Positions 48,691 to 64,000 of a stretch of DNA of 64,000 nucleotides are shown here, in pieces. The notes under the pieces were generated by a model that had not been told where the DNA came from, did not search any database, and was given only the letters and a program-made list of their open reading frames with translations. Positions within the stretch are counted from its first letter, which is position 1. Every line of letters starts with the position of its first letter. Origin of the DNA: a virus; UHGV virus genome UHGV-1372779; one strand, 5' to 3'. The position numbers and the translations under genes were made by a program.

Positions 48691-48762
48691 GAACGAATAG
48701 CTTAGCGGATAAAGCAATTATCTTGGATATAATAGTTCTGGGTTCGATTCCCAGTTTGTTTA
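48691..48762 (+). tRNA. tRNA-Pro (anticodon UGG), AT-rich
   Basis: Acceptor gaacgaa/tttgttt (G-U pairs). Anticodon arm attat-cuUGGau-ataat. T-arm ctgggttcgattcccag. Preceded by the ACTTACAATA motif at 48669. Confidence 0.6.
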
Positions 48763-48771
48763 GTAAAATTA

Positions 48772-50166: not shown

Positions 50167-50312
50167 GTTTATAAAACAGTAGCAAGGTTATAGTTTATAT
50201 TTCTTGCTACTGCATGTTACTTACAATCTAACAAACTTGTCTGATCTGCAAGTAAAAAAGGATCTCCATAGCTATCATCTTTATTAATAATTAAGTTTAA
50301 TCAAGTAACATT

Positions 50313-51836
50313 ATGAAAGTAGAATTAAATAACAAAGAAACAAATCCTTTTTCTGGGTTAAGAAACTGTTTGAAGATTTTTAACAACGGTGGTCAAGGCA
50401 TTACATTAAGTCAAGATGATTTAAATAAAGCCTGGGAAGAGGTAAAAGATAGTAAAGAGAAGAAAGAGATGTTTTTCTCTCTATTATTCTCATTAGGAGA
50501 TATTACTGCCAGACAACACAACATCTTTAGAGGTCAAAAAGTTGATTCTGGAGGTAATTCTCAAAGGGAAATTTTTTTCAACTGTATGGAGTGGATGAAA
50601 AAGAATATCCCAGATCAATTCTTTAAATTCATGAAATCTCATTTATTTAATGAGTACACTTGTTTTGATAATCTATTTAGGAATAGAGTCCAAACTCAGG
50701 GTAAGAAGATCATATCTATTAAATCTGTGTTGAACACATCTGATAATAGATATTTCAATGAGTTATTAGATTACACTGAATCTATTATCAAAGGTAAGAA
50801 TCCTTATGATAAGATGCTTGTAGCTAAATTCTTAACTCTTCCTAGATTATCACCAAGAAAAGAGCATAAACAAATGCTTCCTCAAACTAAAGAATTGATG
50901 AAAGCAAAGGCTAAATTCTTAGAAGAATTATCTAAGAGAATGAATTGGCCTTATAAAATTGAAGGAAATATACTAAACTTCAAAGGATATAGAGAGTGGA
51001 GGAAGGAATACAACTCTACATTAGAATCTGTTCTTTTCAGTACTGGAAAGATTAAAGATTTTGATGAAATTCAGTTTTTGGAATGGTTGGATAGAATCCC
51101 TGCACAAGCTAGATTCAGAGTGAGAAACAGAATCATGTTTGAGAAAGAGGGAACATTTAAATATCCTAAACTGAAAGAGTGGTATGAAAAGTGGGAGAAA
51201 TACAAAGAAGAGAAACAGGCAGAGCAAAGAGTTCTTGAAGAGAAAGTTCGCCAAGGACAGGCTAGTGTAGAGGATAAAGTTAAATTGGAAAAGGTTAAAA
51301 AAGAAGCCAAGGTAACAGTTGGATCTACTAACTTCCAAGAACTTTATAAAGAGATCCTTAGTGGAAGGATTGATAAACTTAAATTGGAGTCTTTTGTGAA
51401 TAACAAAGTAAGTCTTCAATATAATAGTTTAGTGATTATTGATGACTCCGGATCTATGGGTGGTGCGCCTTTTAACTTTGCTAAATTTATTGCATCTGTT
51501 TGTCTTGTTAAAAATCCAGATGATGATGGAAGAAACCTTTTAGGATTCTTCAATTATGATTCTAGACTATACGGAAGTATGGATAGAGCTGGAAGTAAGA
51601 CTCCTAATAGCTTAATGAGATCAAGTGTGAAGAATATTGTTAAGAAGCCTTTTGTAGATCCTCATAAGAGTTTCTATGAAAACTATCAAAACATTTCTTC
51701 ATTCTGCCAAGGTGTATTCCAAGGTGGAGGTACTAGAATAAATAGTATCCCAAAAGGATTTGCTGAACAAGCTAATAATAATCCTGTATTATTAGATGAA
51801 CTTATGCAATACCCAGTTTGGACAATTGTTAGTGAT
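50313..51836 (+). CDS. Ro60/Rsr-like protein, exon 1: helical N-terminal (TROVE-like) region plus first part of vWA domain
   Basis: About 370 aa helical N-terminal region, then a vWA domain starting VIIDDSGSMGG (MIDAS DxSGS at residues 376..381) with GGGTR downstream. Ends ...YPVWTIVSD followed by a stop at the intron boundary. Confidence 0.45.
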
Positions 51837-53045
51837 TAAATTCTATTCATAGTCACTCCCAATAGTAATATTGGTGTAAAAATGCTTTAAATTGCGGGAA
51901 ACTCCTTAGAGACTAATTAACTAAGTATAAACAGTGATGTTTATATGGCCTTATTAATGATTAAGGGTATAGTAAAATCAATTAGTATTGGAAAATCCGC
52001 AGCCAAATCTCTTTTATAAAATAATTTAATAAATTCTACAATCATTTTGATTTCTGAATTTAATTGTTTATATTTGTATTATGTTAAACTAATACAAATA
52101 AACATGAGAAAATTAGAACAAAATGAAATTAATAAAATTCTTCAGCTTTACACTGAAGAAAAATATTCAATATCTAAAATAAGAGCACTTTTCAAACTTC
52201 AATTTGATGATGTAAAACATATTCTAGAAGAAAACGGAATAAAGACAAAATCTCAAAGAGAAAGTAGAAAGACTTATGATTATAATGAAAACTATTTTTC
52301 TGAAATAAACACAAAAGATAAAGCCTATTGGTTAGGATTTATTTACGCTGATGGATTTATTACTAAAAAGGCTAAAGGAAGTCCAGTTTTTGGAATGACT
52401 TTAGGAGAAATAGAGCCATTAGAAAAGTTAAATAAATATATGGATTCTAACAAACCTATAGGAATATATAAGAAGAAAAATAGTTATTCTGAAAAATCTA
52501 TTGAATATAAATTAGCTTTCTGTTCTCCTAAATTAGTTTCAGATTTAGAGAAATGGGGAGTTGTAGAAAACAAAACATTCAAATTAAAATTTCCTAACTT
52601 TCTATCTCCAAACCTCATTCCTCATTTTATTAGAGGGTATTTTGATGGAGATGGGAGTGTATATCTTCACATTCAAAAAACTAAGGATAAGGAATATATA
52701 TTCTTGGGTTCCCAGTTTTGCGGAACCAAAAGTTTTCTTTCAGACTTATCTAAATATATAAACTTAGAAACTTGCTTATATAAAGATAGTAGAAAACAAA
52801 CTGATTGTTGGAGGATACAATTAAATTCAAACATAAGAAGCTTAACCTTATATCATTATTTATATAATAATTGTGAAGATTTATTCTTATCAAGAAAAAG
52901 GGAAAAATTTGAAAATTTTATAAAAGAGAGAGGTTCAACGACTACAATAAGCAATCCTATCTATGGTGATCCAGAATATTTAACTCTGTGTTATCTAGAG
53001 GATTAAGGTATAGTCTAATCTTATATGAAAGTATAAGTAGTTATG
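51837..53045 (+). mobile_element. Group I intron with LAGLIDADG homing endonuclease ORF
   Basis: AAATTGCGGGAAA (51893..51905) is identical to the Tetrahymena-type P element. Q-like AATCCGCAGCCAA at about 51993. GACTA/TAGTC P7 candidates at 51915 and 53012. Near-identical GATTAAGG(G)TATAGT blocks at 51962 and 53002 flank the endonuclease ORF. The 5' exon ends in U and the intron ends in G (53045). Confidence 0.6.
52047..53006 (+). CDS. LAGLIDADG homing endonuclease (319 aa)
   Basis: Two LAGLIDADG motifs: YWLGFIYADGFI and IRGYFDGDGSV. Confidence 0.8.
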   Translation: MISEFNCLYLYYVKLIQINMRKLEQNEINKILQLYTEEKYSISKIRALFKLQFDDVKHILEENGIKTKSQRESRKTYDYNENYFSEINTKDKAYWLGFIYADGFITKKAKGSPVFGMTLGEIEPLEKLNKYMDSNKPIGIYKKKNSYSEKSIEYKLAFCSPKLVSDLEKWGVVENKTFKLKFPNFLSPNLIPHFIRGYFDGDGSVYLHIQKTKDKEYIFLGSQFCGTKSFLSDLSKYINLETCLYKDSRKQTDCWRIQLNSNIRSLTLYHYLYNNCEDLFLSRKREKFENFIKERGSTTTISNPIYGDPEYLTLCYLED

Positions 53046-53354
53046 GGTGAATGGAATAATATGTATTCTCCAGAAGCTTCGATGAATGAATTCTTCAGAG
53101 ATTGTGAGAATCTTTTAGGATTTAGACCATTTATCATTGCGATAGATATTCAAAATCCTAATTGGGCATATCAGACATTTAAAGCTGATAGATTCACTGG
53201 TATAGATAATATGATCTATATTCCAAGTAACCCAGCTCAAATTGAGCAAATTCTTACAAATTTCAAGGACATTGAAATCTTTGATGTCTATACTCCGTTA
53301 CTCTCTTTATACAGAAGTAATAGATATGATCTAGTAAGGACTAATGTAATTTAG
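53046..53354 (+). CDS. Ro60/Rsr-like protein, exon 2 (C-terminal part of vWA domain)
   Basis: Joining ...TIVSD to GEWNNMYS... recreates the vWA h-h-h-(T/S)DG-x-x-N motif (IVSDGEWN). Continues with FIIAIDIQNP... Confidence 0.5.
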   Translation, partial: GEWNNMYSPEASMNEFFRDCENLLGFRPFIIAIDIQNPNWAYQTFKADRFTGIDNMIYIPSNPAQIEQILTNFKDIEIFDVYTPLLSLYRSNRYDLVRTNVI

Positions 53355-53429
53355 TCCTTACTATTAAAATGACTCAATTATTATAAAGAACAATACAGAT
53401 ACTTACAATATTACAAGAATCAATTTATG

Positions 53430-53454
53430 CAGGTTCAACTCCTGTCTTTTGCAT
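53430..53454 (+). pseudogene. tRNA 3' fragment (T-arm plus 3' acceptor strand) without upstream D/anticodon arms
   Basis: gcaggttcaactcctgt plus cttttgc plus a. The complementary 5' strand gcagaag, with a D-arm and a cuGAGaa anticodon arm, lies just downstream (53466..53510). This could be a permuted or rearranged gene. Confidence 0.35.
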
Positions 53455-53589
53455 TAGCAGAAGTGGCGAAATTGGTATACGCACTGGTCTGAGAAACTAG
53501 GAATATAATATTCAATAGTATCTATTTATGACTTTTCTTTTCCTTGCATGATATACTGATACTTACAAAATCAAAACCATCTGTGGGTC

Positions 53590-53648
53590 GAGGGTTCGAA
53601 TCCTTCAAATCGCGCGTTTTGCGAATTTAGCTCAGTAGGTTTAGAGCA
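53590..53648 (+). pseudogene. tRNA 3' fragment followed by a tRNA 5' fragment (acceptor plus D-arm only)
   Basis: gagggttcgaatccttc-aaatcgc-g, then gcgaatt-ta-gctcagtaggtttagagca. The two acceptor strands are complementary except for one A-A. No anticodon arm follows. Confidence 0.35.
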
Positions 53649-53731
53649 ATAGACAAAAAAGTATCATTCAGATAAGGAAATAATATTTTAGAATAAAAAT
53701 TATAAAGTCACTTACAATATTATCATAATTC

Positions 53732-53805
53732 GTAGAAATAACTCAATAGGATAGAGTACAAAACTTATAATTTTGGTGTTCAGGGTTCGATCCCCTGTTT
53801 TTACA
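53732..53805 (+). tRNA. tRNA-Ile (anticodon UAU), AT-rich
   Basis: Acceptor gtagaaa/tttttac. D-arm actc-aataggata-gagt. Anticodon arm caaaa-cuUAUaa-ttttg. T-arm cagggttcgatcccctg. Confidence 0.6.
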
Positions 53806-53840
53806 GTGTAATTATTATAGTGACTAATTTTATATTTTAA

Positions 53841-53952
53841 GGGGATGGTTTATAACTATTAGTAAATTTATATTTACTTACAAAATCATAAACTGTACGG
53901 AAAAATTTACACCACAAATGTAAACAAGCAGGTTCGAATCCTGCCATCCCCG
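53841..53952 (+). ncRNA. 112-nt tRNA-like RNA (Y-RNA/YrlA-like candidate) with perfect acceptor-type stem ggggatg/catcccc
   Basis: Terminal 7-bp stem plus discriminator g. Canonical T-arm gcaggttcgaatcctgc. Anticodon-arm-like hairpin tttaca-ccacaaa-tgtaaa. No D-arm. Contains the internal ACTTACAAAATC motif. Confidence 0.45.
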
Positions 53953-53980
53953 CAAAAGCTACTTACAATAAGATTTAAAT

Positions 53981-54053
53981 ATAACAATAGCTCAGTTGGT
54001 TGAGCAAATTTTTGGTAAAAATTAGGTCGTAGGTTCAAGTCCTACTTGTTAAA
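53981..54053 (+). tRNA. tRNA-Thr (anticodon GGU)
   Basis: Acceptor ataacaa/ttgttaa. D-arm gctc-agttggtt-gagc. Anticodon arm aattt-uuGGUaa-aaatt. T-arm gtaggttcaagtcctac. Confidence 0.65.
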
Positions 54054-54082
54054 TAAATTTAAAAGTAGCTATTTTATAACTT

Positions 54083-54199
54083 GGGGAGGTTGAAATGTTG
54101 GAGTAAGAGTATCAGTTCATTGTGATACTTACAAAATCAAATTAATTTCGAATAAATTTGGGTTTTATCTTAACGCAGGTTCGATTCCTGTCCTCCCCA
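54083..54199 (+). ncRNA. 117-nt tRNA-like RNA (Y-RNA/YrlA-like candidate) with perfect acceptor-type stem ggggagg/cctcccc
   Basis: Terminal 7-bp stem plus discriminator a. T-arm gcaggttcgattcctgt. Internal ACTTACAAAATC motif. No canonical D or anticodon arms. Confidence 0.45.
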
Positions 54200-54241
54200 C
54201 TACGTTTCGTAAGAGCAAATAGTCAGACACTTACAATACTA

Positions 54242-54314
54242 TAAATTGTAGCTCATTGGGTAGAGCATTTGATTTTTAATCAAAGGGTAGTGGGTTCAAG
54301 TCCCATCTTAGTGT
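54242..54314 (+). pseudogene. tRNA-Lys(UUU)-like body with non-complementary acceptor strands (pseudo-tRNA or non-canonical)
   Basis: D-arm tagctcattgggtagagca. Anticodon arm tttga-uuUUUaa-tcaaa. T-arm gtgggttcaagtcccat is identical to that of tRNA-Lys at 59069. 5' taaattg and 3' cttagtg do not pair. Outer stem cagacact/agtgtctg flanks the unit. Confidence 0.35.
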
Positions 54315-54326
54315 CTGTTTTTAAAT

Positions 54327-54398
54327 TGAGACATCGTATAATGGTTAATACATCAGATTTTGATTCTGAGAATCTAGGTTCGAATCCTAGTGCCTCAA
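54327..54398 (+). tRNA. tRNA-Gln (anticodon UUG)
   Basis: Acceptor tgagaca/tgcctca (one mismatch). D-arm gtat-aatggtta-atac. Anticodon arm tcaga-uuUUGau-tctga. T-arm ctaggttcgaatcctag. Confidence 0.55.
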
Positions 54399-54488
54399 CA
54401 TTTATTCTTGTTTATTGTTCCATATGTGTTATTGGATGAGTGTATAGGTAGAAATACTTATACACTCTTTTTATTTAAAATTAGTTAT

Positions 54489-55940
54489 ATGTTATTTAAG
54501 AAAGAATATAAGATAGGAGATGTAGTTACATTTTTCCTTAGAGATGGTAAAGAAGAATTTATTGCCACTTTTAAAGTTGAGCTTGAGTCACTGCCTACAG
54601 TATCATTTTATTATTTAAAAGGATTTACTGAAAAATATGGTGAAGAGTATGGTAGTCATTATTCCACTTGGAATAAAATTCTTTCCATGTATGAAAGTTG
54701 GGCGGTACAGGCAAGTGAGAGAACTTTAAAAAATCTTGTTAAAGATTGTCAAGATCAAAAGTCATTCAAATGTAATTGTCCTGAGGGAAGTATATCACCA
54801 GAATTTGCTAATCTGGGAGAGTTAAATGTTTTCATTAGGGCTTTTAGATTATTATTAATAGATAAGTACCTTAATCTTTGTTCTACTTCAGAATCTATAC
54901 AAAAATTAATAAGCAAAGCTAATGAAAACTATGAAGAATTCTCTTCAACTATTTACAAAGATACCTTATCTTATAGTCAGGCAAAGGAGTATTTATACCG
55001 GTATGTTACTTATAAAAATTCCATTCAAGAACAACCTATTAATATAATAGGTAATGGAACAATTACAGCATCTACTATATCTCCTCAGGAATTTACAATT
55101 ACTCAAGTTAAGAAAGAAGAAGAAAAACCTGTTATAAAAGAAAATTTAATTATGAAAGAAGATGTATTATTCTCAAAAGAAGGAAAAGAAGCAACTTTTG
55201 CAAATCCGTTAAACAATATCTTTGGAAATATGTTCAAAGGTATGAATATGCAAGGAGCTAACATTGAATTTGGATTTATTCAAGATCAATCAATTGCTAT
55301 CTCACCTAAAGGAATCGCATTTTTTGATCCAGAAACTCAAGGATACAAAGCATGGGATGCCAATAATAAAGAGTTAGTAGATATGGGAACTTTTGCTATG
55401 CAAGGTATCTTTATGAAAGTTCCTGTGAAGAGAGAAAGTCTTAAAGAAGGAGATATTCTTCTCATTCAAGATGAGTACAGAATCTTTGATGGTTTTGCTA
55501 CTAAGACCATGAAATTGATTAACCCTCTTACAGGAGTACAGACTAATAAACAAAAACAAACTAACATTTTGAATTTTAATGTATTCATTAAAGTTGTTTG
55601 TGCAATGAATCCCTTTGCTAAAGGAACTATGAATGAATTCATGAAAATTAGCATGATGAGTTCTATGTTTGGAGGTCAAGGAATGCAGGGAATGTTTGGA
55701 GGTAATTGTGGAGGAGATATGGTATCTCAGATGTTCCAACTACAAATGTTAAGTAGTCTTTTTGGAAATGGTAAAGGATTTGATCTAAATTTCGATATGG
55801 ATTTTGGATCTGTTTTTGATTCAGTGTTAGGAACTGAAGCTACTGAAGAATCAGAGTTGAAAAAGAAGCTCAAGGCTCTTGAAAAAGAAAATGCTAAACT
55901 CAAAGCAGCAAAAGAAGAACTTAAAGATAAAGAAGATTAA
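54489..55940 (+). CDS. Hypothetical protein with Met/Gly/Gln-rich segment and C-terminal coiled coil (about 484 aa from ATG 54489)
   Basis: The track ORF starts at 54390 and overlaps tRNA-Gln. The first in-frame ATG outside the tRNA is 54489 (MLFKKEYKIG..). Confidence 0.45.
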   Translation: MLFKKEYKIGDVVTFFLRDGKEEFIATFKVELESLPTVSFYYLKGFTEKYGEEYGSHYSTWNKILSMYESWAVQASERTLKNLVKDCQDQKSFKCNCPEGSISPEFANLGELNVFIRAFRLLLIDKYLNLCSTSESIQKLISKANENYEEFSSTIYKDTLSYSQAKEYLYRYVTYKNSIQEQPINIIGNGTITASTISPQEFTITQVKKEEEKPVIKENLIMKEDVLFSKEGKEATFANPLNNIFGNMFKGMNMQGANIEFGFIQDQSIAISPKGIAFFDPETQGYKAWDANNKELVDMGTFAMQGIFMKVPVKRESLKEGDILLIQDEYRIFDGFATKTMKLINPLTGVQTNKQKQTNILNFNVFIKVVCAMNPFAKGTMNEFMKISMMSSMFGGQGMQGMFGGNCGGDMVSQMFQLQMLSSLFGNGKGFDLNFDMDFGSVFDSVLGTEATEESELKKKLKALEKENAKLKAAKEELKDKED

Positions 55941-56126
55941 GATTTAGATAGGAATAATTTTTATGAAAATTTCTTATAAAATTATTTGGAATTTGAAAAT
56001 TATTACCTTATCTTTGTATTCATCTTCGATAAGATAAACTGTTGAAAGGAATATAATAGTTCCAAGTAAATAAAGGATGAGAGTTTCATAAAATATTATC
56101 ATATTTTACTTTAAATCATCCTAAAT

Positions 56127-56201
56127 GGGTTCTTAGCCAAGTAGGTAAAGGCACCTGACTCATAATCAGGAGATACGCTGGTTCGATCCCAGCAGAGCCC
56201 A
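56127..56201 (+). tRNA. tRNA with CAU anticodon (Met or Ile2)
   Basis: Acceptor gggttct/agagccc. D-arm tagccaagtaggtaaaggca. Anticodon arm cctga-cuCAUaa-tcagg. T-arm gctggttcgatcccagc. Confidence 0.7.
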
Positions 56202-56211
56202 CATATACTAT

Positions 56212-56287
56212 ATAGGTGTAGTTCAGTTGGTAGAACGCTGCATTTGGGATGCAGAGGCCGCTAGTTCAAGTCTAGTCACCTATACCA
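56212..56287 (+). tRNA. tRNA-Pro-like (anticodon UGG) with genomically encoded 3' CCA
   Basis: Perfect acceptor ataggtg/cacctat plus a plus CCA. D-arm gttc-agttggta-gaac. Anticodon arm ctgca-uuUGGga-tgcag. T-arm gctagttcaagtctagt. Confidence 0.55.
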
Positions 56288-56404
56288 AGATTGTAATCAT
56301 TGATACTTTAAATCCAAGTTGGTGGTAAGGACTTTAACATCACTTTATACTTTGTTGTATAATAAACCCATGTGAGTAGTATTTAAAATGGAGGCTCACA
56401 AATT

Positions 56405-56492
56405 GGAAGATTGCTAGAACGGTAATAGAACAGTCTTGAAAACTGATGTAACGTAATCATTCGTTGAGCAGGTTCGACTCCTGCATCTTCCT
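56405..56492 (+). tRNA. tRNA-Ser (anticodon UGA), class II
   Basis: Perfect acceptor ggaagat/atcttcc. Anticodon arm cagt-cuUGAaa-actg. Long variable arm. T-arm gcaggttcgactcctgc. Confidence 0.65.
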
Positions 56493-56504
56493 CATCAATA
56501 TAAT

Positions 56505-56576
56505 GCTCCAATAGTTTAACGGATAAAACAATTCTCTTCTAAAGAATAAATTCTAGTTCGATTCTAGGTTGGAGTA
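56505..56576 (+). tRNA. tRNA-Arg (anticodon UCU)
   Basis: Acceptor gctccaa/ttggagt. D-arm gttt-aacggata-aaac. Anticodon arm attct-cuUCUaa-agaat. T-arm tctagttcgattctagg. Confidence 0.65.
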
Positions 56577-56585
56577 CTAATTTAT

Positions 56586-56658
56586 ATACTCATAGCTCAA
56601 TCGGTAGAGCACCAGTCTCCAAAACTGAAGGTTCTAGGTTCAAGTCCTTGTGAGTATG
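56586..56658 (+). tRNA. tRNA-Trp (anticodon CCA)
   Basis: Perfect acceptor atactca/tgagtat. D-arm gctc-aatcggta-gagc. Anticodon loop cuCCAaa. T-arm ctaggttcaagtccttg. Confidence 0.65.
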
Positions 56659-56672
56659 CTAATTCAAACAAC

Positions 56673-57065
56673 ATGAATGTAACAAATTTATCTAAAGAAG
56701 AAAGATTGAAGCTCTTTCAAGAGTGGATGGATGCTAATAAGAAAGCTAATGAAGAGGGATACAATCCAGATATAACATCTAAAGATGGATATTATCTTAC
56801 ATTTGGCCATGATTATGATATATCTAAAGAAGAATTAGAAGATCCTAACTTCTATTTAATAGAATGGGGAGAAAGTTCTAAACTTCCTTACTGGATGAGA
56901 CAAATGGCTGATAAAATAGGTAAAAGATGTACTATAGATTGTTCTGGAGAAACAGGGATATTTCTGGGATTTACAGCTTCTTATGAGGATTTTTATTATA
57001 GAATAAAGCTTGATACAGGTGAGAATACATTAGAAACTTGTGTAAGTAATTTATTATTTGAATAG
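56673..57065 (+). CDS. Hypothetical protein (130 aa)
   Basis: ORF between tRNA genes. Its 3' end abuts tRNA-Ile. Confidence 0.45.
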   Translation: MNVTNLSKEERLKLFQEWMDANKKANEEGYNPDITSKDGYYLTFGHDYDISKEELEDPNFYLIEWGESSKLPYWMRQMADKIGKRCTIDCSGETGIFLGFTASYEDFYYRIKLDTGENTLETCVSNLLFE

Positions 57066-57135
57066 GATTATCTTCCAAAGGTTAGGAAACTTGACTGATA
57101 CTCAAGCAATCATGGTTCGAATCCATGTAATCCTA
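57064..57135 (+). tRNA. tRNA-Ile (anticodon GAU)
   Basis: Perfect acceptor aggatta/taatcct. D-arm ttcc-aaaggtta-ggaa. Anticodon arm cttga-cuGAUac-tcaag. T-arm catggttcgaatccatg. Confidence 0.7.
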
Positions 57136-57139
57136 CCCA

Positions 57140-57428
57140 TTAAGTAGTAATACTTGGTGCTGTTCAGAGTTAAGTTGAAAGTACGCCTCTGCAACCGGGA
57201 AATGTTGTAAAACTAATTAGAAAAAACTTATCGTACCATGAGAGGGAGACAGTTGACCTCTCACTTTTGAAACAAAATATGTAAAAATATTCACATAGTT
57301 GGTGACTATGTGCGTACAAGGTAGCACAAGGTTGTACAGAGGAGCTAACCACTCAAACCGTGCTAAAAATGTGATCATCTGTACTGATGAGAGTATGTAC
57401 AGGACTTTTTAAGTCAAATCTCTCACTT
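57140..57428. other. ORF-free, hairpin-rich spacer between tRNA-Ile and tRNA-Ala (possible sRNA or processing region)
   Basis: Multiple perfect hairpins: gagagg..cctctc plus cttttg; cacatagt-tggtg-actatgtg; gtacaa..ttgtac; ctgtac-tgatgagagtat-gtacag. Only a low-complexity minus-strand ORF. Confidence 0.3.
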
Positions 57429-57500
57429 TGGGGTCATAGTATAAAGGCTATTATACTAGATTTGCATTCTAGTGATCTGGGTTCGATTCCCAGTGATTCC
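57429..57500 (+). tRNA. tRNA-Ala (anticodon UGC)
   Basis: Acceptor ggggtca/tgattcc (two G-U). Anticodon arm ctaga-uuUGCau-tctag. T-arm ctgggttcgattcccag. Confidence 0.6.
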
Positions 57501-57511
57501 ACAATTATTTA

Positions 57512-57597
57512 AGTACCTTTGGCCGAGTGGACGATGGCACATGACTGTTAATCATGCAGGAGAAATCCTCACCGTAAGTTCGAATCTTACAGGGTAC
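57512..57597 (+). tRNA. Atypical tRNA: class II architecture (GCCGAGUGG D-arm, 17-nt variable arm, G73) with a GUU (Asn) anticodon
   Basis: Acceptor gtacctt/agggtac. D-arm gcc-gagtggacgat-ggc. Anticodon arm catga-cuGUUaa-tcatg. Variable arm caggagaaatcctcacc. T-arm gtaagttcgaatcttac. Confidence 0.5.
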
Positions 57598-57729
57598 GCT
57601 CATTCTTAACCTACATCTTAGGATGCTAATATAGTTGTACAAGAATGTCTTTGTAGTGTTAGGTGAATACAAAGACGCTGGCTGCAGCGTGATACTCAAT
57701 GGTGGAATTAAGAGCAGCACCACCAATTT

Positions 57730-57800
57730 GCAGGTATAGCACAGTGGTAGTGCAGGAGCCTTCCAAGCTCACTACGTGGGTTCGATTCCCATTACCTGCT
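57730..57800 (+). tRNA. tRNA-Gly (anticodon UCC)
   Basis: Perfect acceptor gcaggta/tacctgc. D-arm gcac-agtggta-gtgc. Anticodon loop cuUCCaa. T-arm gtgggttcgattcccat. Confidence 0.7.
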
Positions 57801-57831
57801 CTATTAACATATTAAATAAGATAAGATAATT

Positions 57832-58188
57832 ATGATCAATTTAGAAGAAAAAATTAAAAATAATGAAGATTTAATTAGAAAGTATACATTAGATCAATGG
57901 ATTGCATTATTAAAACATATATGTATATCCTGCATAAGAATTCCTTCTAAAAAGGAAATAGAATCTATTATGAATGCAAATTCATTTAAAGTAGAATATG
58001 CAGAAGGAAGGATTATAAAAATAGAACTTTACACAAATGATCTGTGTTGGGAAGACTTTAAAATGGAGTTAAATATATTAAATATAGTAATTTCTAGACA
58101 GAAAGGATATAACACATTTGAACAAATTACATTTATTCCTCTTGAAGTGTTTAAAATATTAAATGATGGTATTTTTAAATGTAAATAA
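57832..58188 (+). CDS. Hypothetical protein (118 aa)
   Basis: ORF between tRNA genes. Confidence 0.45.
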   Translation: MINLEEKIKNNEDLIRKYTLDQWIALLKHICISCIRIPSKKEIESIMNANSFKVEYAEGRIIKIELYTNDLCWEDFKMELNILNIVISRQKGYNTFEQITFIPLEVFKILNDGIFKCK

Positions 58189-58194
58189 TTATAT

Positions 58195-58268
58195 TGCGGG
58201 ATAGACTGGAGAGGTTCCAGCTCAGTCTCATAAGCTGAATTACGTGAGTTCGATTCTCACTCCCGCAA
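58195..58268 (+). tRNA. tRNA with CAU anticodon (third CAU tRNA; Met/fMet/Ile2 unresolved), non-standard D region
   Basis: Acceptor tgcggga/tcccgca. Anticodon arm tcagt-cuCAUaa-gctga. T-arm gtgagttcgattctcac. Four nt between acceptor and D-stem. Confidence 0.55.
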
Positions 58269-58295
58269 CTATTTATTACTTAAATTAGATAAATT

Positions 58296-58703
58296 ATGAT
58301 TAATCTACAAGTTATTCCTTTTGAAGAATTACTTCAATGGAAAGAGAAAATTCAAGAAGAACTAGATAGAAGAGATCTCTATGCATTCGACATTACTGTA
58401 AAAGCATTATTTGAACTTCATCCAGAAAAGAAAGTATTAGTGTTAGGAATGTCTTATAAAGCATATGATACCCCTTATGAAACAGGTACTAGTTCTGCAA
58501 TTTGGGTTGATGAAGCATTTGGCAAATATGGAGAAGATGATCTAATCAACCTCTGCGAGGATGAGGAGACAGAGAATCTTATTCAAAAGTTAGCAAGATA
58601 CTTTAACCTTGAAGAAGACAATGAATTATATCCTGGACAAAGATGTATTTATTATATAGATAGATCTGATCCAGAGAATATTCAGACATATATAGAGGGT
58701 TAA
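58296..58703 (+). CDS. Hypothetical acidic protein (135 aa)
   Basis: ORF between tRNA genes. Confidence 0.45.
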   Translation: MINLQVIPFEELLQWKEKIQEELDRRDLYAFDITVKALFELHPEKKVLVLGMSYKAYDTPYETGTSSAIWVDEAFGKYGEDDLINLCEDEETENLIQKLARYFNLEEDNELYPGQRCIYYIDRSDPENIQTYIEG

Positions 58704-58715
58704 TAATCCTCTAAT

Positions 58716-58789
58716 GGAACTATAGCTCAGTAGGTAGAGCACTAGATTGAAGATCTAGGTTTGCACTGGTTCGATCCCAGTTAGTTCCA
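58716..58789 (+). tRNA. tRNA-Phe (anticodon GAA)
   Basis: Perfect acceptor ggaacta/tagttcc. D-arm gctc-agtaggta-gagc. Anticodon arm ctaga-uuGAAga-tctag. T-arm actggttcgatcccagt. Confidence 0.75.
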
Positions 58790-59068
58790 CGTTTAATATT
58801 CTATAAGAGAGACTATTATGTAGTATAGTTTTATTATGTTGAATATATGTTTTGAGCAGTTGTATCATTGAAAACTCCTCCCTCTTAGTGCTTTGGTTGG
58901 TAAAATAAAGCAGGCGAAAGTTTTAGCTCCTTCTAGAGAGTTTTTCAGACAGCCATAAGGAATTTGAAAAAGACCGTGTTCTAGACCTTTCATACTAGAA
59001 GGTTAAAAGTATGATATTTATTGTGCACAATTTTAGGGGAGAGGTACATGTACTATCTCCCTAAATAT

Positions 59069-59140
59069 TACCCTGTAACTCAATGGCAGAGTACTACACT
59101 TTTAATGTAGGAGTTGTGGGTTCAAGTCCCATCAGGGTAA
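59069..59140 (+). tRNA. tRNA-Lys (anticodon UUU)
   Basis: Perfect acceptor taccctg/cagggta. D-arm actc-aatggca-gagt. Anticodon arm ctaca-cuUUUaa-tgtag. T-arm gtgggttcaagtcccat. Confidence 0.7.
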
Positions 59141-59150
59141 CTAATTTTAT

Positions 59151-59224
59151 AGAGGATTAACTCAGCGGTTGAGAGTGTCACTTTTACACAGTGAAAGTCA
59201 TAGGTTCGAATCCTATATCCTCTA
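59151..59224 (+). tRNA. tRNA-Val (anticodon UAC)
   Basis: Perfect acceptor agaggat/atcctct. Anticodon arm tcact-uuUACac-agtga. T-arm ataggttcgaatcctat. Confidence 0.65.
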
Positions 59225-59226
59225 CT

Positions 59227-59300
59227 GTGTTATTAGCTTAGTTGGTTAAAGCGCTGGGTTGTGGTTCCAGAGATCATGGGTTCAAGTCCCATATAACACC
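59227..59300 (+). tRNA. tRNA-His (anticodon GUG)
   Basis: Perfect acceptor gtgttat/ataacac. D-arm gctt-agttggtta-aagc. Anticodon loop uuGUGgu. T-arm atgggttcaagtcccat. Confidence 0.6.
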
Positions 59301-59316
59301 TAATGTTTAATTTTAT

Positions 59317-59404
59317 GGAAGGTTACTCAAATTGGTTAAGAGGACACATTGCTAACGTGTTAGAGCAGTAAAATGCTGTGAGAGTTCGAACCTCTCACCT
59401 TCCT
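59317..59404 (+). tRNA. tRNA-Ser (anticodon GCU), class II
   Basis: Perfect acceptor ggaaggt/accttcc. Anticodon loop uuGCUaa. Variable arm agagcagtaaaatgctgt. T-arm gagagttcgaacctctc. Confidence 0.7.
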
Positions 59405-59422
59405 CAAATAATAAATAATGCA

Positions 59423-59563
59423 ATGGAAAAGAGATTTAAAGTAATAACTAAAATGAATCAGATTCATTTAGTTACAATAGAAACAGAAGAGAAGTATAAA
59501 TTAGGGTTATACTTATCCTATTTAACAGAATTATTTGGTGAATCAGAAATAATTTCTCTATAA
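59423..59563 (+). CDS. Hypothetical small protein (46 aa from ATG 59423)
   Basis: The track ORF begins inside tRNA-Ser. The first ATG after the tRNA is at 59423. Confidence 0.25.
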   Translation: MEKRFKVITKMNQIHLVTIETEEKYKLGLYLSYLTELFGESEIISL

Positions 59564-59568
59564 TAAAT

Positions 59569-59874
59569 ATGGAAAGTAATATTGAGATAAATGACGGAGA
59601 TATTATCCAATTTAAGAATGAAAATAATTCAAGATATTGGGTTGCAATACATCATTCTAAATGTAATATGGATAATAGAGAGAAATTTAGAAGAAATATC
59701 GCTGATCATACTGGATATTATTTATTTAGTGGAATTTGGTATGAGGGAGATATTTTAACTGATAAACCTTATGGAAAATGTATAGAACAGCTCAGAAGAG
59801 GTATGTTTCCTAATATAGAAATAGTAGGAAATATTATTAAAGATTTTGAGAGGTTTAAAGAAATGTTAGTGTAG
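59569..59874 (+). CDS. Hypothetical protein (101 aa)
   Basis: ORF. Confidence 0.45.
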   Translation: MESNIEINDGDIIQFKNENNSRYWVAIHHSKCNMDNREKFRRNIADHTGYYLFSGIWYEGDILTDKPYGKCIEQLRRGMFPNIEIVGNIIKDFERFKEMLV

Positions 59875-59885
59875 TATTTATATAA

Positions 59886-59957
59886 GTCGGGTTCATCTAG
59901 GGGTCAGGATTACAGATTTTCGATCTGTTCACAGGGGTTCAAATCCCCTACCCGATA
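59886..59957 (+). tRNA. tRNA-Glu (anticodon UUC)
   Basis: Acceptor gtcgggt/acccgat (G-U at 1-72). Anticodon arm acaga-uuUUCga-tctgt. T-arm aggggttcaaatcccct. Confidence 0.65.
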
Positions 59958-60067
59958 CAAAATTTAGTTAAACAATAATGGCAGCTTAATAGTATAGGTG
60001 ATGCTTTTTTATCTAATTAGAAATAATTTAATTAAGAAGCACTCAACCTATATTATTAAGATTTTAA

Positions 60068-60141
60068 GCACCTGTAGCCCAATTGGCAGAGGCAATAGAT
60101 TTAGGCTCTATCCAGTGTGAGTTCGAATCTCACTAGGTGTA
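60068..60141 (+). tRNA. Atypical tRNA: class I body (5-nt variable loop) with UAG anticodon (a Leu-type anticodon normally found on class II tRNAs)
   Basis: Acceptor gcacctg/taggtgt (two G-U). D-arm tagcccaattggcagaggc. Anticodon arm ataga-uuUAGgc-tctat. Variable ccagt. T-arm gtgagttcgaatctcac. Confidence 0.5.
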
Positions 60142-60427
60142 CGAAAATCAAGAAAGAACAGGTTTTCGATTTTTTGGTGCAGTTTGGGGTATTTGAAGAT
60201 TGATTTCATCTTTAAATACCCCATTTTTATTTTTATACTTAACTTCAAAATATGAGCCTATTTTATACCCAAAATGATGTAATTTTTAGAATCTCATTCT
60301 GGAACTGTATATTGAAAATAATAAAAATTTCATAAGGTGTATATATAATGAAATTATGAGTAATTTAGTTAAATATTTTTAAATTTATTTGATGTTGAAT
60401 TTTATAAATAATAGATAGAATATAGTT

Positions 60428-60883
60428 ATGAATGATTACGCATGTAAAAATCCCTATTGCGAGGATGGCAGAATATCTACATTCCATAATTGTGCTGAAT
60501 TTAAAGAAAAGTTCAGGGAATTTTTGAGAGTATTTAGTAGGTTTAGTTCTGATGTCCTTGGTTACAAAGAGGATAAAGAAGAGAGAATTTGGTCTGGAAA
60601 CAGGTTTGACAGAAGAGAAGATTGTGAACGTTTTGAAGAAGAACTTCTTTTGTATTTAAGATTAAGAGCATATCTTAGTTTTAGGAATTGGTTGGTGACT
60701 AAGAAAGATTATGTATCAAATATAAGAGTAGTATACTCTTACAATGAAAACAAATGGGTAGTAAGCAGTGAAAAGAATAAGGGAATCTTAGCTTTGTATA
60801 TAGATACACTTGAACATGCTGAGAAGGTTGCTAATATGCTTAACTATAGTAAAGTAGAGTTTGATAATTTATTTTCCGAATGA
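60428..60883 (+). CDS. Hypothetical protein (151 aa)
   Basis: ORF. Cys/His pattern at the N-terminus (CKNPYCEDGRISTFHNC). Confidence 0.45.
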   Translation: MNDYACKNPYCEDGRISTFHNCAEFKEKFREFLRVFSRFSSDVLGYKEDKEERIWSGNRFDRREDCERFEEELLLYLRLRAYLSFRNWLVTKKDYVSNIRVVYSYNENKWVVSSEKNKGILALYIDTLEHAEKVANMLNYSKVEFDNLFSE

Positions 60884-60886
60884 TTT

Positions 60887-61378
60887 ATGAAAAGATTTAT
60901 TTTAATTATTAGTATCATATTTATATCACTATCAGGTTTTTCTCAGGAAGTAGTATCTAAGGATTCTACAAATATATTATCAGAGAAAATATATAATGAT
61001 GTAAAACAGGCTATAGTAGGTGTCTCTCAAGCCCTTAAAGTAGGAGCTGAGAATGTTTATGAAATTGTTAAAGCTCAACAGGCTGTTAATAGTATTATCA
61101 ATCTTTGTGTGATTGTATGTGGTGTTCTTCTAACTTTACTTATATTTCGTTATCTTAAATCTACTATAAAAGTAGTAACAAAGAAGGATGAGAAGGGAAA
61201 AGCCATTGATTGGTATTATAATAAAGACTCAGAAACATGGGTATTTGCACATGTATTAGGAGGAGTGATGTTGGCAGTACTAGTAGTATTTACTATGGTC
61301 ACTATTAAAAATACTATAACAGGATTTTTAAATCCAGACTTTGGAGTTATTAATTATTTATTAGAATTTATAAAATGA
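60887..61378 (+). CDS. Membrane protein with signal peptide (163 aa)
   Basis: N-terminal signal-like segment plus two to three TM helices. First gene of the NfeD/flotillin cluster. Confidence 0.45.
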   Translation: MKRFILIISIIFISLSGFSQEVVSKDSTNILSEKIYNDVKQAIVGVSQALKVGAENVYEIVKAQQAVNSIINLCVIVCGVLLTLLIFRYLKSTIKVVTKKDEKGKAIDWYYNKDSETWVFAHVLGGVMLAVLVVFTMVTIKNTITGFLNPDFGVINYLLEFIK

Positions 61379-61905
61379 TAGATATTATATTGACATTAGC
61401 TATAGTAGTTTCTGCGATATTTGTAATCCAATTCTTAGTATCTATATTAGGTATGGGAGTAGACATGGATGTTGACTTAGATTCTAGCTTTGACACTGAT
61501 ATAGATAGTACAGGTTCTACAGTAGGAGACTTAATATCCTTTAAAGGAGTATTGCATTTCTTATTAGGATTCTGTTGGACTTTAGTATTATTGAAAGAGA
61601 TTAAGGCTCTAACTGTAGCTGTTGCTATAGGAGTTGGAATATTATTTGTAATAGTACTATATCATGTATATAAAGGTATTAATAAATTAAAATCTGAACC
61701 AACTAGAGAAACTTTATCAGATCTAGTAGGAAGATCCTGCACTATATATTGTAAACTACCTAATGAGAATGGGTATATGGTGAGTATAGTTGTTAATGGT
61801 TTAGTAACAGAAAAGACTGTATTTTCTCAATCTAATATACCTTATGAGGTAGGAGATATAGTATTTATCACAGATTGTAATGATGAGTTTTTATTTATTG
61901 AATAG
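61375..61905 (+). CDS. NfeD-like membrane protein (176 aa)
   Basis: N-terminal TM helices plus a C-terminal soluble beta domain (LVGRSCTIYCKLPNENGYMVSIVVNGLVTEKTVFSQ..IPYEVGDIVFITDCND) resembling the NfeD/YuaF OB-fold. Stop overlaps the start of the flotillin gene. Confidence 0.55.
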   Translation: MIDIILTLAIVVSAIFVIQFLVSILGMGVDMDVDLDSSFDTDIDSTGSTVGDLISFKGVLHFLLGFCWTLVLLKEIKALTVAVAIGVGILFVIVLYHVYKGINKLKSEPTRETLSDLVGRSCTIYCKLPNENGYMVSIVVNGLVTEKTVFSQSNIPYEVGDIVFITDCNDEFLFIE

Positions 61906-61929
61906 TTATATAATTTTAATTAGTTAAAA

Positions 61930-63756
61930 ATGGAAGGATTAGATTTAAGTTCGCTATTAATTGTAGCAGGAATTTTAGTTGTAGTAATTATTATTACTAT
62001 CATTGCGGTTTTATCAAGATATAGGAAGTGTCCTCCTGATAAAATCTTAATAATTTATGGTAAATCTTCTAAGGATAAAGAAGGTAACAAGAAACCTTCT
62101 AAGGTTATTCATGGAGGATCTACATTTGTTTGGCCTTACTTCCAAGGTTATACTACAATGTCCTTAATTCCAATTCAATTTAAATGTACTATTGCTGATG
62201 CATTATCAAGTCAGTATATTAGAGTAACTGTGCCTATTACAGCTACAGTTGCTGTAAATTCTGAGGAACCATTTGTTCAAAATGCAGTAAGTAGATTAGC
62301 TGGATTGACTGAGGACACTATTATAGAAATGACTAGAGAAATTATCTATGGCCAATTTAGGGAAATTATTTCTAAATCTTCTATTGAACAGTTAAATGCT
62401 GACAGAGATGCTTTTAGAACTAACTGTGAGCAAAGTATTGCTAGTGAGTTAAATAAACTAGGATTGAAACTTATCAATATTAACATTGTGGATATTCAAG
62501 ATGAAGCTGGATATATTGCAAATATTGGTAAGAAGGAAGCAGCTAAAGCAGTTAATCAAGCTAAAGTAGAAACTGCAGAGGAAGACAAACAAGGAGCAAC
62601 TAAGAGTGCTGAGATTGAAAAGGATAAAGCAACCCAAGTAGCAGAAACTGAAAAGAATAGAATTAGTATTTTAGCAGAAACCAAGAAAGAGGAGGCTATT
62701 AAGGTTGCAGAAACTGAGAAGAATAGAGTGAGTGCTTTAGCAGAGATTGAGAAAGAGAAAGCTACTCAAGTAGCAGAGGCTGATAGAATCAGAGAGACTA
62801 CTGTAGCTGAAACCAAAGCTCAAGAAAGTGCAAGTATTGTACAATCTAAGAATAATGCAGCTGTAGAAATTGCTAAATCAGATGCAGAAAGGGAATCTAA
62901 ACAAGTAGAGTTTGATAACTCTAAGGAAATTAAGATTGCTCAATCTAACTCTGAAATGGAAATTAGAAAAGCAGAAGCTGAGAAGAATGCAATGGTTGGG
63001 AAGAATGAAGCAATGAAAGCTGTTGCAACCTCTGAAGGAGAATTGAAGGTAACTGAAGCAGAAGCAGAGAGAAAAGCTAGAGAGGCTCAAGTAATTGCAG
63101 ATGCTAAGGTTAAAGAAAGACAAGAACTTCAACAAAAAGCTGTAGAGGAAGCTAGAGCGCAAAAAGTTGAAACTCAGTTAAAAGCTGAAAAGATTGTTCC
63201 TGCAGAAATTGAGAAGGAGAAAGCTCGTCTTAATGCGGAGGCTTATCAGAATGAAGTAACTGGTAAAGCTAAAGCCGAAGCTGAGGCTATTAAACTCAAA
63301 GCAGAAGCAGAAGCGGCTGCAATTAGATTAAAACAAGAAGCAGAAGCAGCAGGTATTCAGGCTAAACTTGAAGCTGAGGCTGAGGGTAAGAGAAAGTCTG
63401 CATTAGCTGAGGCTGAGGGATTTAAAGCAACCATGGAAGCAGCTAAAGGAAATGAAACCTTAGCAATTCATTACAAAATGGTTACTCAGTATAAGGAAAT
63501 TGCTGGTGAGCAGGTTAAAGCATTTGAGAAGATGAACCTTGGAAATATCAATATCTTTGATACTGGTGATGGTAAAGGTGCTGGGAAGTTCATGAAGGAT
63601 ATTGTTAATACAGTTGCGCCTGCAACTAGTGTGTTATCCGAAATGCCAGTAATTGGAAAAGCTGTGAAAGCATTAGAGAGTGCTTTAGATAAGAAGAATG
63701 AGAGTGAGAATGGGGAGGGAGATGTTAAATCTTCTGCTTTCGAAGAGGTAAAGTAA
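61930..63756 (+). CDS. Flotillin-like SPFH/Band-7 protein with EA-repeat coiled coil (608 aa)
   Basis: N-terminal TM helix. SPFH-type domain (PPDKILIIYGK..GGSTFVWPYFQ..). Long Ala/Glu-rich coiled coil with repeated AEAEA/EAEAA units as in FloT/YuaG. Confidence 0.65.
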   Translation: MEGLDLSSLLIVAGILVVVIIITIIAVLSRYRKCPPDKILIIYGKSSKDKEGNKKPSKVIHGGSTFVWPYFQGYTTMSLIPIQFKCTIADALSSQYIRVTVPITATVAVNSEEPFVQNAVSRLAGLTEDTIIEMTREIIYGQFREIISKSSIEQLNADRDAFRTNCEQSIASELNKLGLKLININIVDIQDEAGYIANIGKKEAAKAVNQAKVETAEEDKQGATKSAEIEKDKATQVAETEKNRISILAETKKEEAIKVAETEKNRVSALAEIEKEKATQVAEADRIRETTVAETKAQESASIVQSKNNAAVEIAKSDAERESKQVEFDNSKEIKIAQSNSEMEIRKAEAEKNAMVGKNEAMKAVATSEGELKVTEAEAERKAREAQVIADAKVKERQELQQKAVEEARAQKVETQLKAEKIVPAEIEKEKARLNAEAYQNEVTGKAKAEAEAIKLKAEAEAAAIRLKQEAEAAGIQAKLEAEAEGKRKSALAEAEGFKATMEAAKGNETLAIHYKMVTQYKEIAGEQVKAFEKMNLGNINIFDTGDGKGAGKFMKDIVNTVAPATSVLSEMPVIGKAVKALESALDKKNESENGEGDVKSSAFEEVK

Positions 63757-63762: not shown

Positions 63763-63797
63763 AGAGGAGTTAGGAAACTAACTCCTCTTTTTATTTA
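63763..63797 (+). terminator. Rho-independent terminator after the flotillin gene
   Basis: agaggagtta-ggaaac-taactcctct followed by ttttatttaaat. Confidence 0.7.
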
Positions 63798-63804: not shown

Positions 63805-64000
63805 ATGAAACAAGTATTAGTTTTTGTAAAGGCTAAGAATTCTTTATTGTTTAGACAATATTCAACTTGTGTTCCTAAGGGAGAATTACTTCCAGATGAA
63901 ACTCCAGTTAAAGCAGCAATGAGAATTCTTAAAGAAATATATGGATTAAGATTTAAAGAATTACAATTTATAGAGCTAGATAATAATGAAAAGCATGTAA
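63805..64000 (+). CDS. NUDIX hydrolase-like protein, partial (runs off window end)
   Basis: GELLPDETPVKAAMRILKEIYGL approximates the Nudix box Gx5Ex7REuxEExGu. Preceding ..VLVFVKAKNSLLFRQ fits the Nudix fold start. Confidence 0.45.
   Translation, partial: MKQVLVFVKAKNSLLFRQYSTCVPKGELLPDETPVKAAMRILKEIYGLRFKELQFIELDNNEKHV

Follow-up and report, generated by a model that had tools for sequence, protein, structure and literature searches.

The question raised by the 64,000-nucleotide stretch of virus genome UHGV-1372779 analyzed here (the window, meaning this whole stretch throughout) is whether a phage encodes a genuine NfeD–flotillin operon and, if so, which role such a cassette could have during infection. 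NfeD–flotillin operons are near-universal in bacteria, and their physiological role is debated, with microdomain scaffolding, membrane fluidity and ATP-independent stabilization of unfolded membrane proteins all under discussion. An earlier note on this DNA had described three open reading frames (ORFs) between positions 60887 and 63756 as an operon of this kind, and their coordinates were confirmed by ORF listing. Our analyses indicated that two of them very probably form a phage NfeD–flotillin pair: ORF2 (61375 to 61905, plus strand; 176 amino acids, aa), a short NfeD-type membrane partner, and ORF3 (61930 to 63756, plus strand; 608 aa), a flotillin-family SPFH scaffold protein. The evidence, which upheld the core of the earlier proposal, came from the sequence of ORF3, the family profile and predicted fold of ORF2, the linkage of the two genes and the purifying selection acting on them.

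ORF3 was predicted to be a full-length flotillin, in which an N-terminal anchor is followed by an SPFH domain, then by a coiled coil rich in EA repeats and finally by a flotillin C-terminal region. The SPFH domain was assigned by a match to the Pfam Band_7 model (PF01145; E = 2.3e-25; 90.1 bits versus a gathering score of 23.6) over residues 53 to 220 (nucleotides, nt, 62086 to 62589). A single strongly hydrophobic segment was detected, within residues 1 to 34 (Kyte-Doolittle mean of 3.49), and the predicted membrane anchor was placed by hydrophobicity at residues ~8 to 30 (nt 61951 to 62019). Residues 201 to 500 (nt 62530 to 63429) contained 21% Ala, 19% Glu and 15% Lys (55% together), as well as seven EAEA/AEAE runs. 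Five of these runs fell within residues 449 to 496, and the coiled coil was assigned from the composition and the runs. The 608-aa protein with a transmembrane (TM) anchor, an SPFH/Band-7 domain and an EA-repeat coiled coil that the earlier note had described was therefore recovered. The C-terminal region was delimited by a match, slightly short of the gathering score, to the Pfam Flot model (PF15975; E = 9.9e-6) at residues 482 to 560 (nt 63373 to 63609); a PF15975 match is precomputed for most close homologues of ORF3, and this region was highly conserved in the alignment, in which ORF3 was conserved along its full length with phage and Bacteroidales flotillins. Comparison with PDB sequences gave flotillin-1 or flotillin-2 as the top five matches (human flotillin-1, E = 7e-18; flotillin-2, E = 7e-13) and a match to stomatin with an E value of 4e-4, and the sole NCBIfam match was to FloT (NF058507; E = 1.9e-41). 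By these PDB and NCBIfam matches, ORF3 was closer to flotillins than to stomatin, HflK/C or prohibitin. Near-repeats (ATQVAETEKNRISILAE, IKVAETEKNRVSALAE and ATQVAEADRIRE) were observed inside the coiled coil at residues ~221 to 285 (nt 62590 to 62790), and ORF3 was ~65 residues longer than Bacteroidales flotillins (608 versus ~540 aa). Indels among homologues fell in the near-repeat region, which suggests that the height of the flotillin scaffold may differ by lineage.

For ORF2 alone, no Pfam, NCBIfam, PHROG or PADLOC match was obtained, and the NfeD model PF01957 was absent even at E ≤ 1. A word-indexed homologue search recovered only the near-identical members of its own cluster; an exhaustive HMMER search recovered 497 cluster representatives at E ≤ 1e-3, 75 of which were used for a family alignment and profile. 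PF01957 was matched by 14 of these 75 family members (E ≤ 0.01; best E = 4.4e-6). Furthermore, the family profile matched the soluble domain of YuaF of Bacillus subtilis (PDB 2K14) with an E value of 1.4e-4 over profile positions 111 to 173, with a weaker match to 2K5H, and the YuaF match fell exactly on the C-terminal domain of the family. An AlphaFold2 (AF2) model computed from the 75-member alignment had a predicted local distance difference test score (pLDDT) of 89.7 overall and of 96 to 97 in the barrel. This model, together with hydrophobic segments, placed three TM helices at residues 2 to 24, 56 to 73 and 78 to 105, followed by a C-terminal five-strand OB-like barrel at residues 121 to 175 (nt 61735 to 61899). 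When the model was compared with 350,542 PDB chains by Foldseek, the top four matches were the C-terminal domains of NfeD proteins (2K14, 2EXD, 2K5H and 3WWV). The best match in a viral structure library was a 175-aa protein labeled in UniProt as "NfeD-like C-terminal domain-containing protein" (E = 7e-15; 30% identity), and the model aligned with full-length YbbJ across 133 residues. From the family profile, the fold and the gene position, ORF2 is predicted to be an NfeD-type protein of the short kind, in which three TM helices precede an OB-like barrel; the N-terminal TM helices and NfeD-type C-terminal OB/beta domain proposed earlier were borne out by the AF2 model, Foldseek and the profile.

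The possibility that ORF2 is an unrelated small membrane protein with a generic OB-like barrel was weighed against these results. The lack of direct Pfam, NCBIfam and PHROG matches is compatible with this explanation, as are the Foldseek E values, which were only ~1e-2 to the NfeD domains with many other OB folds scoring close by. An unrelated protein is nevertheless very unlikely given the YuaF profile match, the presence of PF01957 in relatives, and an architecture and obligate place upstream of a flotillin gene that follow the short NfeD pattern. Similarly, the absence of an NfeD hidden Markov model (HMM) hit, named beforehand as grounds for rejection, held formally for the single ORF2 sequence and was overturned by the profile, the 14 relatives and the fold. 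An acidic DxDxDxD loop between TM1 and TM2 (residues 25 to 49; nt 61447 to 61521), modeled with low confidence, had a 75-member consensus of GGDxDxDxDxDxD in which four Asp residues were invariant in phage and Parabacteroides copies, and a conserved SFKG..HF..GF.W motif was present after it. Cation binding by this loop would be a guess.

Linkage of the two genes was examined in the 87 loci fetched first, among them 81 viral-collection loci, the phage csAssE-Sib, two Logan contigs and two Parabacteroides loci. An ORF2 homologue was located directly upstream of the flotillin gene in all 87. A scan of IMG/VR detected 171 contigs with a relative of ORF3; the best 80 of these were examined, and 78 were contigs of the csAssE type, many of them 140 to 155 kb long. 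One csAssE-type flotillin variant was seen on 131 contigs in the protein database. A scan of bacterial genomes detected 320 relatives of ORF3, and the best 80, with identities of 44 to 48%, were all from Bacteroidales or unclassified gut metagenome-assembled genomes (including Bacteroides, Phocaeicola, Parabacteroides and Prevotella). The partner was present upstream in 79 of these 80 loci, the sole exception being cut by a contig end. The NfeD-like/flotillin pair is thus a standard chromosomal unit of gut Bacteroidales.

Among phages, the pair was carried by two lineages. The window lineage consisted of the window, one IMG/VR contig and two Logan contigs (67 to 70% flotillin identity), which were the sole carriers of two further genes, ORF0 and ORF1, alongside the pair. 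The second lineage is represented by csAssE-Sib (OR575929; 151 kb; human gut), in which a "transmembrane protein" (WOZ57346) is encoded directly upstream of a "flotillin family protein" (WOZ57345); the NfeD nature of the former is not annotated there. These proteins were 41% and 49% identical to ORF2 and ORF3, respectively, and at least 78 IMG/VR contigs, the longest ~150 kb, were related to csAssE-Sib, making this lineage abundant in human gut metagenomes. csAssE-Sib was not among the 92 phage records that matched the window terminase, and no terminase similarity was detectable between the two lineages. csAssE flotillins were 65 to 69% identical to bacterial ones, whereas those of the window lineage were 47 to 49% identical to all others. 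In a neighbor-joining (NJ) tree of flotillins, which was crude (distance-based and arbitrarily rooted, with 75% support for the split in question), the csAssE clade branched with the Bacteroidales clade, and the window and L006, another locus of its lineage, formed a separate deep branch. A single ancestral acquisition by both phage lineages was not supported by this tree. The simplest reading is repeated acquisition or exchange of an accessory cassette; the tree is too crude for the events to be counted. The csAssE pair differed from that of the window in the lineage of its phage, in a flotillin nearer to the bacterial ones, in a replication-module site behind an acyl carrier protein (ACP) gene and in the absence of ORF0 and ORF1 homologues. 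The ACP gene (PP-binding, E = 3e-6; positions 5161 to 5412 of the csAssE locus) overlapped the start of the NfeD-like gene, likewise in 78 related IMG/VR loci, giving an ACP–NfeD–flotillin unit within the replication module; the window had no ACP gene. Among the neighbors of the flotillin gene, only the NfeD-like gene was common to both lineages.

Selection was examined by comparing the window with its close IMG/VR relative, a 109.5-kb viral contig (synonymous divergence, dS, of ~0.1 to 0.2). ORF3 had 55 synonymous and 3 nonsynonymous differences, with a ratio of nonsynonymous to synonymous divergence (dN/dS) of 0.01, and ORF2 had 15 and 3 (dN/dS of 0.05). The values for ORF1 were 10 and 7 (0.19) and those for ORF0 were 14 and 9 (0.13). 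In the csAssE lineage, dN/dS was 0.03 to 0.05 for both the NfeD-like and the flotillin genes. GC content at third codon positions (GC3) was 0.16 to 0.27 in the window genes (0.22 for the flotillin gene) versus 0.47 in the Parabacteroides homologue, the phage having a GC content of ~30%. The phage copies are hence compositionally ameliorated and under strong purifying selection. These data bear on whether the cassette could be host DNA misassembled as part of a viral contig, or a functionless passenger of recent capture. One point lends this some credence: a 25-kb IMG/VR contig filed as viral (IMGVR_UViG_3300045988_141550) carried a flotillin with 94% identity to that of Bacteroides oleiciplenus, together with a partner of 77% identity. 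Phage-lineage neighbors were missing from this contig, which probably represents bacterial DNA, or the flank of a prophage, wrongly classed as viral. For the cassette of the window, an artefact or passenger is extremely improbable. The same four-gene order was present in the window, in the independent IMG/VR contig (dS of ~0.15) and in the two Logan contigs, with phage genes on both sides; the GC3 values fitted the phage and not bacteria; and dN/dS of the pair was 0.01 to 0.05. Host contamination or chimeric assembly was accordingly rejected because of the synteny seen in independent contigs, the composition and the dN/dS values.

The pair forms the 3' part of a single predicted phage transcription unit spanning 60.4 to 63.8 kb on the plus strand, in the order ORF0 (60428 to 60883; 151 aa), ORF1 (60887 to 61378; 163 aa), ORF2 and ORF3, and the two genes at its conserved core make up an NfeD–flotillin cassette of the bacterial type. 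Only 3 nt separated the end of ORF0 from the ATG of ORF1. The stop/start overlap that had been placed between the NfeD-like and flotillin genes does exist, as a 4-nt ATGA at 61375 to 61378, but it joins ORF1 to ORF2; a spacer of 24 nt separates the end of ORF2 (61905) from the start of ORF3 (61930). An earlier start of ORF3 was ruled out by an in-frame TAG at 61921 to 61923. The 5' boundary of the unit was marked by a terminator-like hairpin at 60185 to 60233 (plus strand; 16-bp stem and T-run), 3' of the final gene of a tRNA array (tRNA-Leu, 60068 to 60142). The terminator that the earlier note had seen after the flotillin gene was found 7 nt past the stop of ORF3 as an intrinsic-terminator-like hairpin at 63763 to 63797 (plus strand; 11-bp stem and T-run), with the sequence AGAGGAGTTAG-GAAA-CTAACTCCTCT followed by TTTTTATTT; this is the 3' boundary. 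Terminator-like sites were observed 6 times versus 1.3 expected in shuffles. A scan for sigma-70-type promoters gave no enrichment (19 found versus 19.1 expected), and no Bacteroidetes-type TAnnTTTG motif was present in the intergenic region 60234 to 60427.

The first two genes of the unit are lineage-specific extras cotranscribed with the cassette. ORF0 encodes a soluble protein, with no family match in Pfam, PHROG and PADLOC scans. Its homologues among the loci examined were confined to the lineage of the window (L002, L003, L008 and L006), with 35% identity to that of L006, and a candidate N-terminal Cys-rich zinc motif was rejected, as the cysteines were not conserved in the L006 homologue. 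ORF1, the signal-peptide membrane protein that had been said to precede the pair, did have a signal-peptide-like N terminus (MKRFILIISIIFISLSGFSQ) and two TM segments predicted by hydrophobicity at residues ~63 to 94 and 115 to 148. It matched a phage "membrane protein" family (phrog_1486; E = 1.8e-6) and contained the conserved motifs YNDVK...ALKVGAE.VY and TGFLNPEYG; its AF2 model was poor (pLDDT of 66). The few homologues of ORF1 found elsewhere were on phage-like contigs without any flotillin, and ORF1 was absent from the csAssE lineage and from the Bacteroidales loci examined. ORF1 is for these reasons a lineage-specific accessory gene and not a conserved partner, and its candidacy as a third conserved component was dropped.

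A mechanism for the pair can be proposed by analogy with FloA–NfeD of Staphylococcus aureus, QmcA–YbbJ of Escherichia coli and the human flotillin cage. The phage flotillin and the NfeD-like protein would insert into the host inner membrane during infection, and the cytoplasmic OB domain of ORF2 would bind the coiled-coil region of the flotillin and promote oligomerization. The cytosolic OB-like domain of S. aureus NfeD binds the FloA coiled coil and stabilizes high-order oligomers, and the NfeD–FloA complex stabilizes unfolded membrane proteins without ATP (PMC11222466). The product would be a large membrane-attached scaffold or cage on the cytoplasmic face, delimiting a membrane microdomain, as SPFH proteins form cages that delimit a membrane patch (PMC11260169). 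In B. subtilis, FloA and FloT are under the control of sigma-W, which is switched on by stress at the membrane, phage infection being one such trigger (PMC8581546). The phage may thus supply its own stress-protective membrane scaffold, which would keep host membrane proteins, fluidity and energization intact until programmed lysis. NfeD-assisted assembly of a scaffold is likely on these analogies, and a membrane-maintenance role during infection is put forward tentatively, as the likeliest of several roles that the data allow. As a whole, this explanation is the best that we can offer and is held with moderate confidence. The maintenance of the complete module in two phage lineages at dN/dS of 0.01 to 0.05 indicates that the module directly benefits phage fitness when Bacteroidales are infected, and the gut phage studied here, a distant relative of crAss-like phages, probably uses this cassette to shape or protect the membrane of its host.

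Several points weigh against this explanation. Of the three model searches that had been suggested as a check, Band_7 was clearly positive, at 90.1 bits, but the Flot match of ORF3, at 26.1 bits, lay 0.9 bits below the Pfam gathering score of 27, and the Pfam NfeD model missed ORF2 itself. The FloT match of ORF3 scored 142.7 bits, far below the 700-bit equivalog cut-off, and ORF3 is for this reason assigned to the flotillin family and not to FloT orthologues by the NCBI criterion. No flotillin match was found in MT835470, the closest GenBank relative by terminase (45% identity), which argues that the cassette is accessory and not essential. Membrane maintenance is one of several roles compatible with the data, and the placement of the cassette, in the replication module beside the ACP gene in csAssE phages and after the tRNA array, cotranscribed with a phage membrane protein, in the window, could indicate a phage-specific platform.

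On this last alternative, the scaffold would gather phage membrane machinery (ORF1, replication complexes, or holin and lysis factors) in a microdomain and would afford no protection to the host. Translational coupling of ORF1 to ORF2 through the ATGA overlap, with purifying selection on ORF1, is consistent with such a platform, as is the location of the csAssE pair amid genes for DnaB helicase, primase, exonuclease and ACP; furthermore, scaffolding of multiprotein complexes has been described for bacterial flotillins (PMC5718613). A platform of this kind is unlikely all the same, with no ORF1 in the csAssE lineage or in bacteria and the ORF1 homologues elsewhere lying apart from any flotillin, with the NfeD-like gene as the only common neighbor in the two phage lineages, and with the sole phage-lysozyme-like gene found in the window (31096 to 31821) ~30 kb distant.

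The occurrence of a homologous pair in host-type Bacteroidales also allowed for interference with the host, in which the phage flotillin would coassemble with or displace the host flotillin (47 to 49% identical) and remodel microdomains to block superinfection, blunt membrane-based abortive defenses or alter envelope signaling. Heterotypic flotillin assemblies are known, human Flot1 and Flot2 forming 22 pairs (PMC11260169), and the deep divergent branch formed by the flotillin of the window lineage would fit an altered function. Set against this, a PADLOC-DB search at E ≤ 0.01 gave no defense-family match for any of ORF0 to ORF3; the presence of a cognate NfeD in the phage points to a self-sufficient module rather than a poison subunit; and very low dN/dS values of 0.01 to 0.05 gave no indication of the rapid adaptive evolution that is frequent among genes in host–phage conflict. 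We therefore consider interference decidedly improbable. A reading of the cassette as a defense system was rejected for its lack of PADLOC matches, and the lysis platform, superinfection exclusion and defense evasion suggested in the earlier note remain speculation.

The divergence between the phage and host flotillins, at ~47 to 49% identity, is similar to that between human flotillin-1 and flotillin-2, which obligately coassemble. A related and still quite unlikely idea is that the phage flotillin serves as a takeover tool that intercalates into or supplants the flotillin assemblies of the host, the phage NfeD acting as a specificity factor. If this were true, host microdomains would be repurposed to recruit ORF1, to exclude superinfecting phages or to silence membrane-based abortive defenses, and acquisition or exchange in two phage lineages without detectable terminase similarity would indicate a general, unrecognized strategy of microdomain hijacking in the human gut. 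The differing neighborhoods of the two phage lineages and the lack of PADLOC matches discriminate poorly between roles, membrane maintenance included.

Among the closest known systems, the chromosomal pair of gut Bacteroidales (for example, Parabacteroides leei JAMBQG010000001, loci L004, L005 and L121; Bacteroides, Phocaeicola and Prevotella) has the same two-gene order, with a gap of mostly 34 to 44 nt. Its partner of ~164 aa, with three TM helices and a barrel, and its flotillin of ~540 aa match the architectures of the window proteins, at 33 to 37% identity for the partner and 44 to 49% for the flotillin. The window copy differs in being phage-borne, in its GC3 (0.22 versus 0.47), in a coiled coil ~65 residues longer, in its deep NJ branch and in the presence of ORF0 and ORF1 upstream. 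The NfeD gene is also first and the flotillin gene second in yuaF–floT (yuaFGI) of B. subtilis and nfeD–floA of S. aureus. In these operons, the short NfeD protein combines TM sequence at its N terminus with an OB-like domain in the cytosol, and EA-repeat coiled coils are present in the flotillin (PMC11222466). The YuaF soluble domain matched the ORF2 family in both profile and fold, but the two are distant in sequence, with ~19 to 22% identity to ORF2 in structure alignments; FloA, of which the Psychrobacillus example has 328 aa (PMC13245101), is far shorter than ORF3, with its 608 aa. In the SPFH–NfeD cage of E. coli (QmcA–YbbJ; PDB 8Z5G), QmcA is of the stomatin type and not the flotillin type, with 8% identity in structure alignment. 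The closest solved sequences to ORF3, over the SPFH domain, were those of the human flotillin-1/flotillin-2 cage (PDB 9BQ2 and 9L3G), which shares with ORF3 the layout of SPFH, coiled-coil and C-terminal oligomerization regions (PMC11260169). Unlike ORF3, the human flotillins are attached by lipidation and hydrophobic contacts, with no TM anchor, and have no NfeD partner.

SPFH-domain ORFs were listed in 2006 in the T4-like phages 44RR, Aeh1 and RB43 as solo genes (PMC1524935). A "flotillin family protein" of Vibrio phage KIT04 was 33% identical to ORF3 over half the protein; no NfeD partner was detectable for it, the upstream 82-aa ORF giving no NfeD match. The hosts of these solo-SPFH phages are Proteobacteria. 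Two matches to "Enterococcus phage" entries were set aside as unverified or unannotated fragments. Literature searches recovered no paper describing a phage NfeD–flotillin pair, their only finds being the solo SPFH domains of T4-like phages and a phage integrating into host floA (PMC13245101). The databases already hold the GenBank label "flotillin family protein" for csAssE-Sib and KIT04 and the UniProt NfeD-like label for one viral relative of ORF2. The cassette is a known kind of operon in a new setting, and neither a new kind of system nor a new mechanism. What is added is, by profile and fold, the assignment of the large "hypothetical" or "transmembrane" family upstream of Bacteroidales flotillins to a divergent NfeD branch that the Pfam NfeD model mostly misses, giving a functional annotation to the 497 cluster representatives of the ORF2 family now labeled "transmembrane protein" or "hypothetical." The phage cassette also represents a natural "minimal and sufficient" version of the NfeD–flotillin system, raises the hypothesis that membrane integrity or microdomain organization limits phage production and provides a solid experimental lead on the purpose of flotillins.

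Phage genes were found elsewhere in the window. The large terminase was encoded at 23070 to 24731 (phrog_6681; E = 2e-45) and the portal at 20635 to 22851 (phrog_6547; E = 1e-45), and two very long minus-strand ORFs of 2230 and 1740 aa were present. The terminase was 26 to 30% identical to those of crAss-like, Flavobacterium and Cellulophaga phages, with a best match of 45% to an unannotated human-faecal phage. From these terminase relatives, the GC content of ~30% and the Bacteroidales affinity of the cassette, the host is probably a member of the Bacteroidota. The 109.5-kb IMG/VR contig was a close relative across the region, with proteins 94 to 99.5% identical, and on it the cassette was followed on the 3' side by small phage-type ORFs, an ADP-ribosylglycohydrolase-like gene and RNase H. 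In the window, a plus-strand NUDIX-domain ORF (63805 to 64000; E = 8e-5) starts right past the flotillin terminator and runs off the end; in the IMG/VR relative, it encodes 106 aa. LAGLIDADG homing-endonuclease-like ORFs were detected at 24914 to 25696 on the minus strand, adjoining the terminase gene, and at 52047 to 53006 on the plus strand in the tRNA region (phrog_4645; E = 9e-55). The terminase match of a relative, MT835539, fell into two parts, a hint that intervening sequences occur in phages of this group.

The array that ends just upstream of the flotillin unit comprised 27 plus-strand tRNA genes with interspersed small ORFs (44897 to 60142). A candidate tmRNA within it, at 48959 to 49510 on the plus strand, matched the full Rfam model RF00023 (49 bits versus a gathering score of 47; E = 2.4e-16). 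Its acceptor and T-arm ends were recognizable (GGGCUAG...UUCGACUCUCCGCUAGUCCAC) and it contained large insertions; it was not called by ARAGORN and overlapped a mechanical minus-strand ORF at 49289 to 49675. This region may encode a phage tmRNA. The array also contained three tRNA-Met(CAT) genes, duplicate Pro, Thr, Ile, Ser and Leu genes, and a partial tRNA-like Rfam match at 54248 to 54307.

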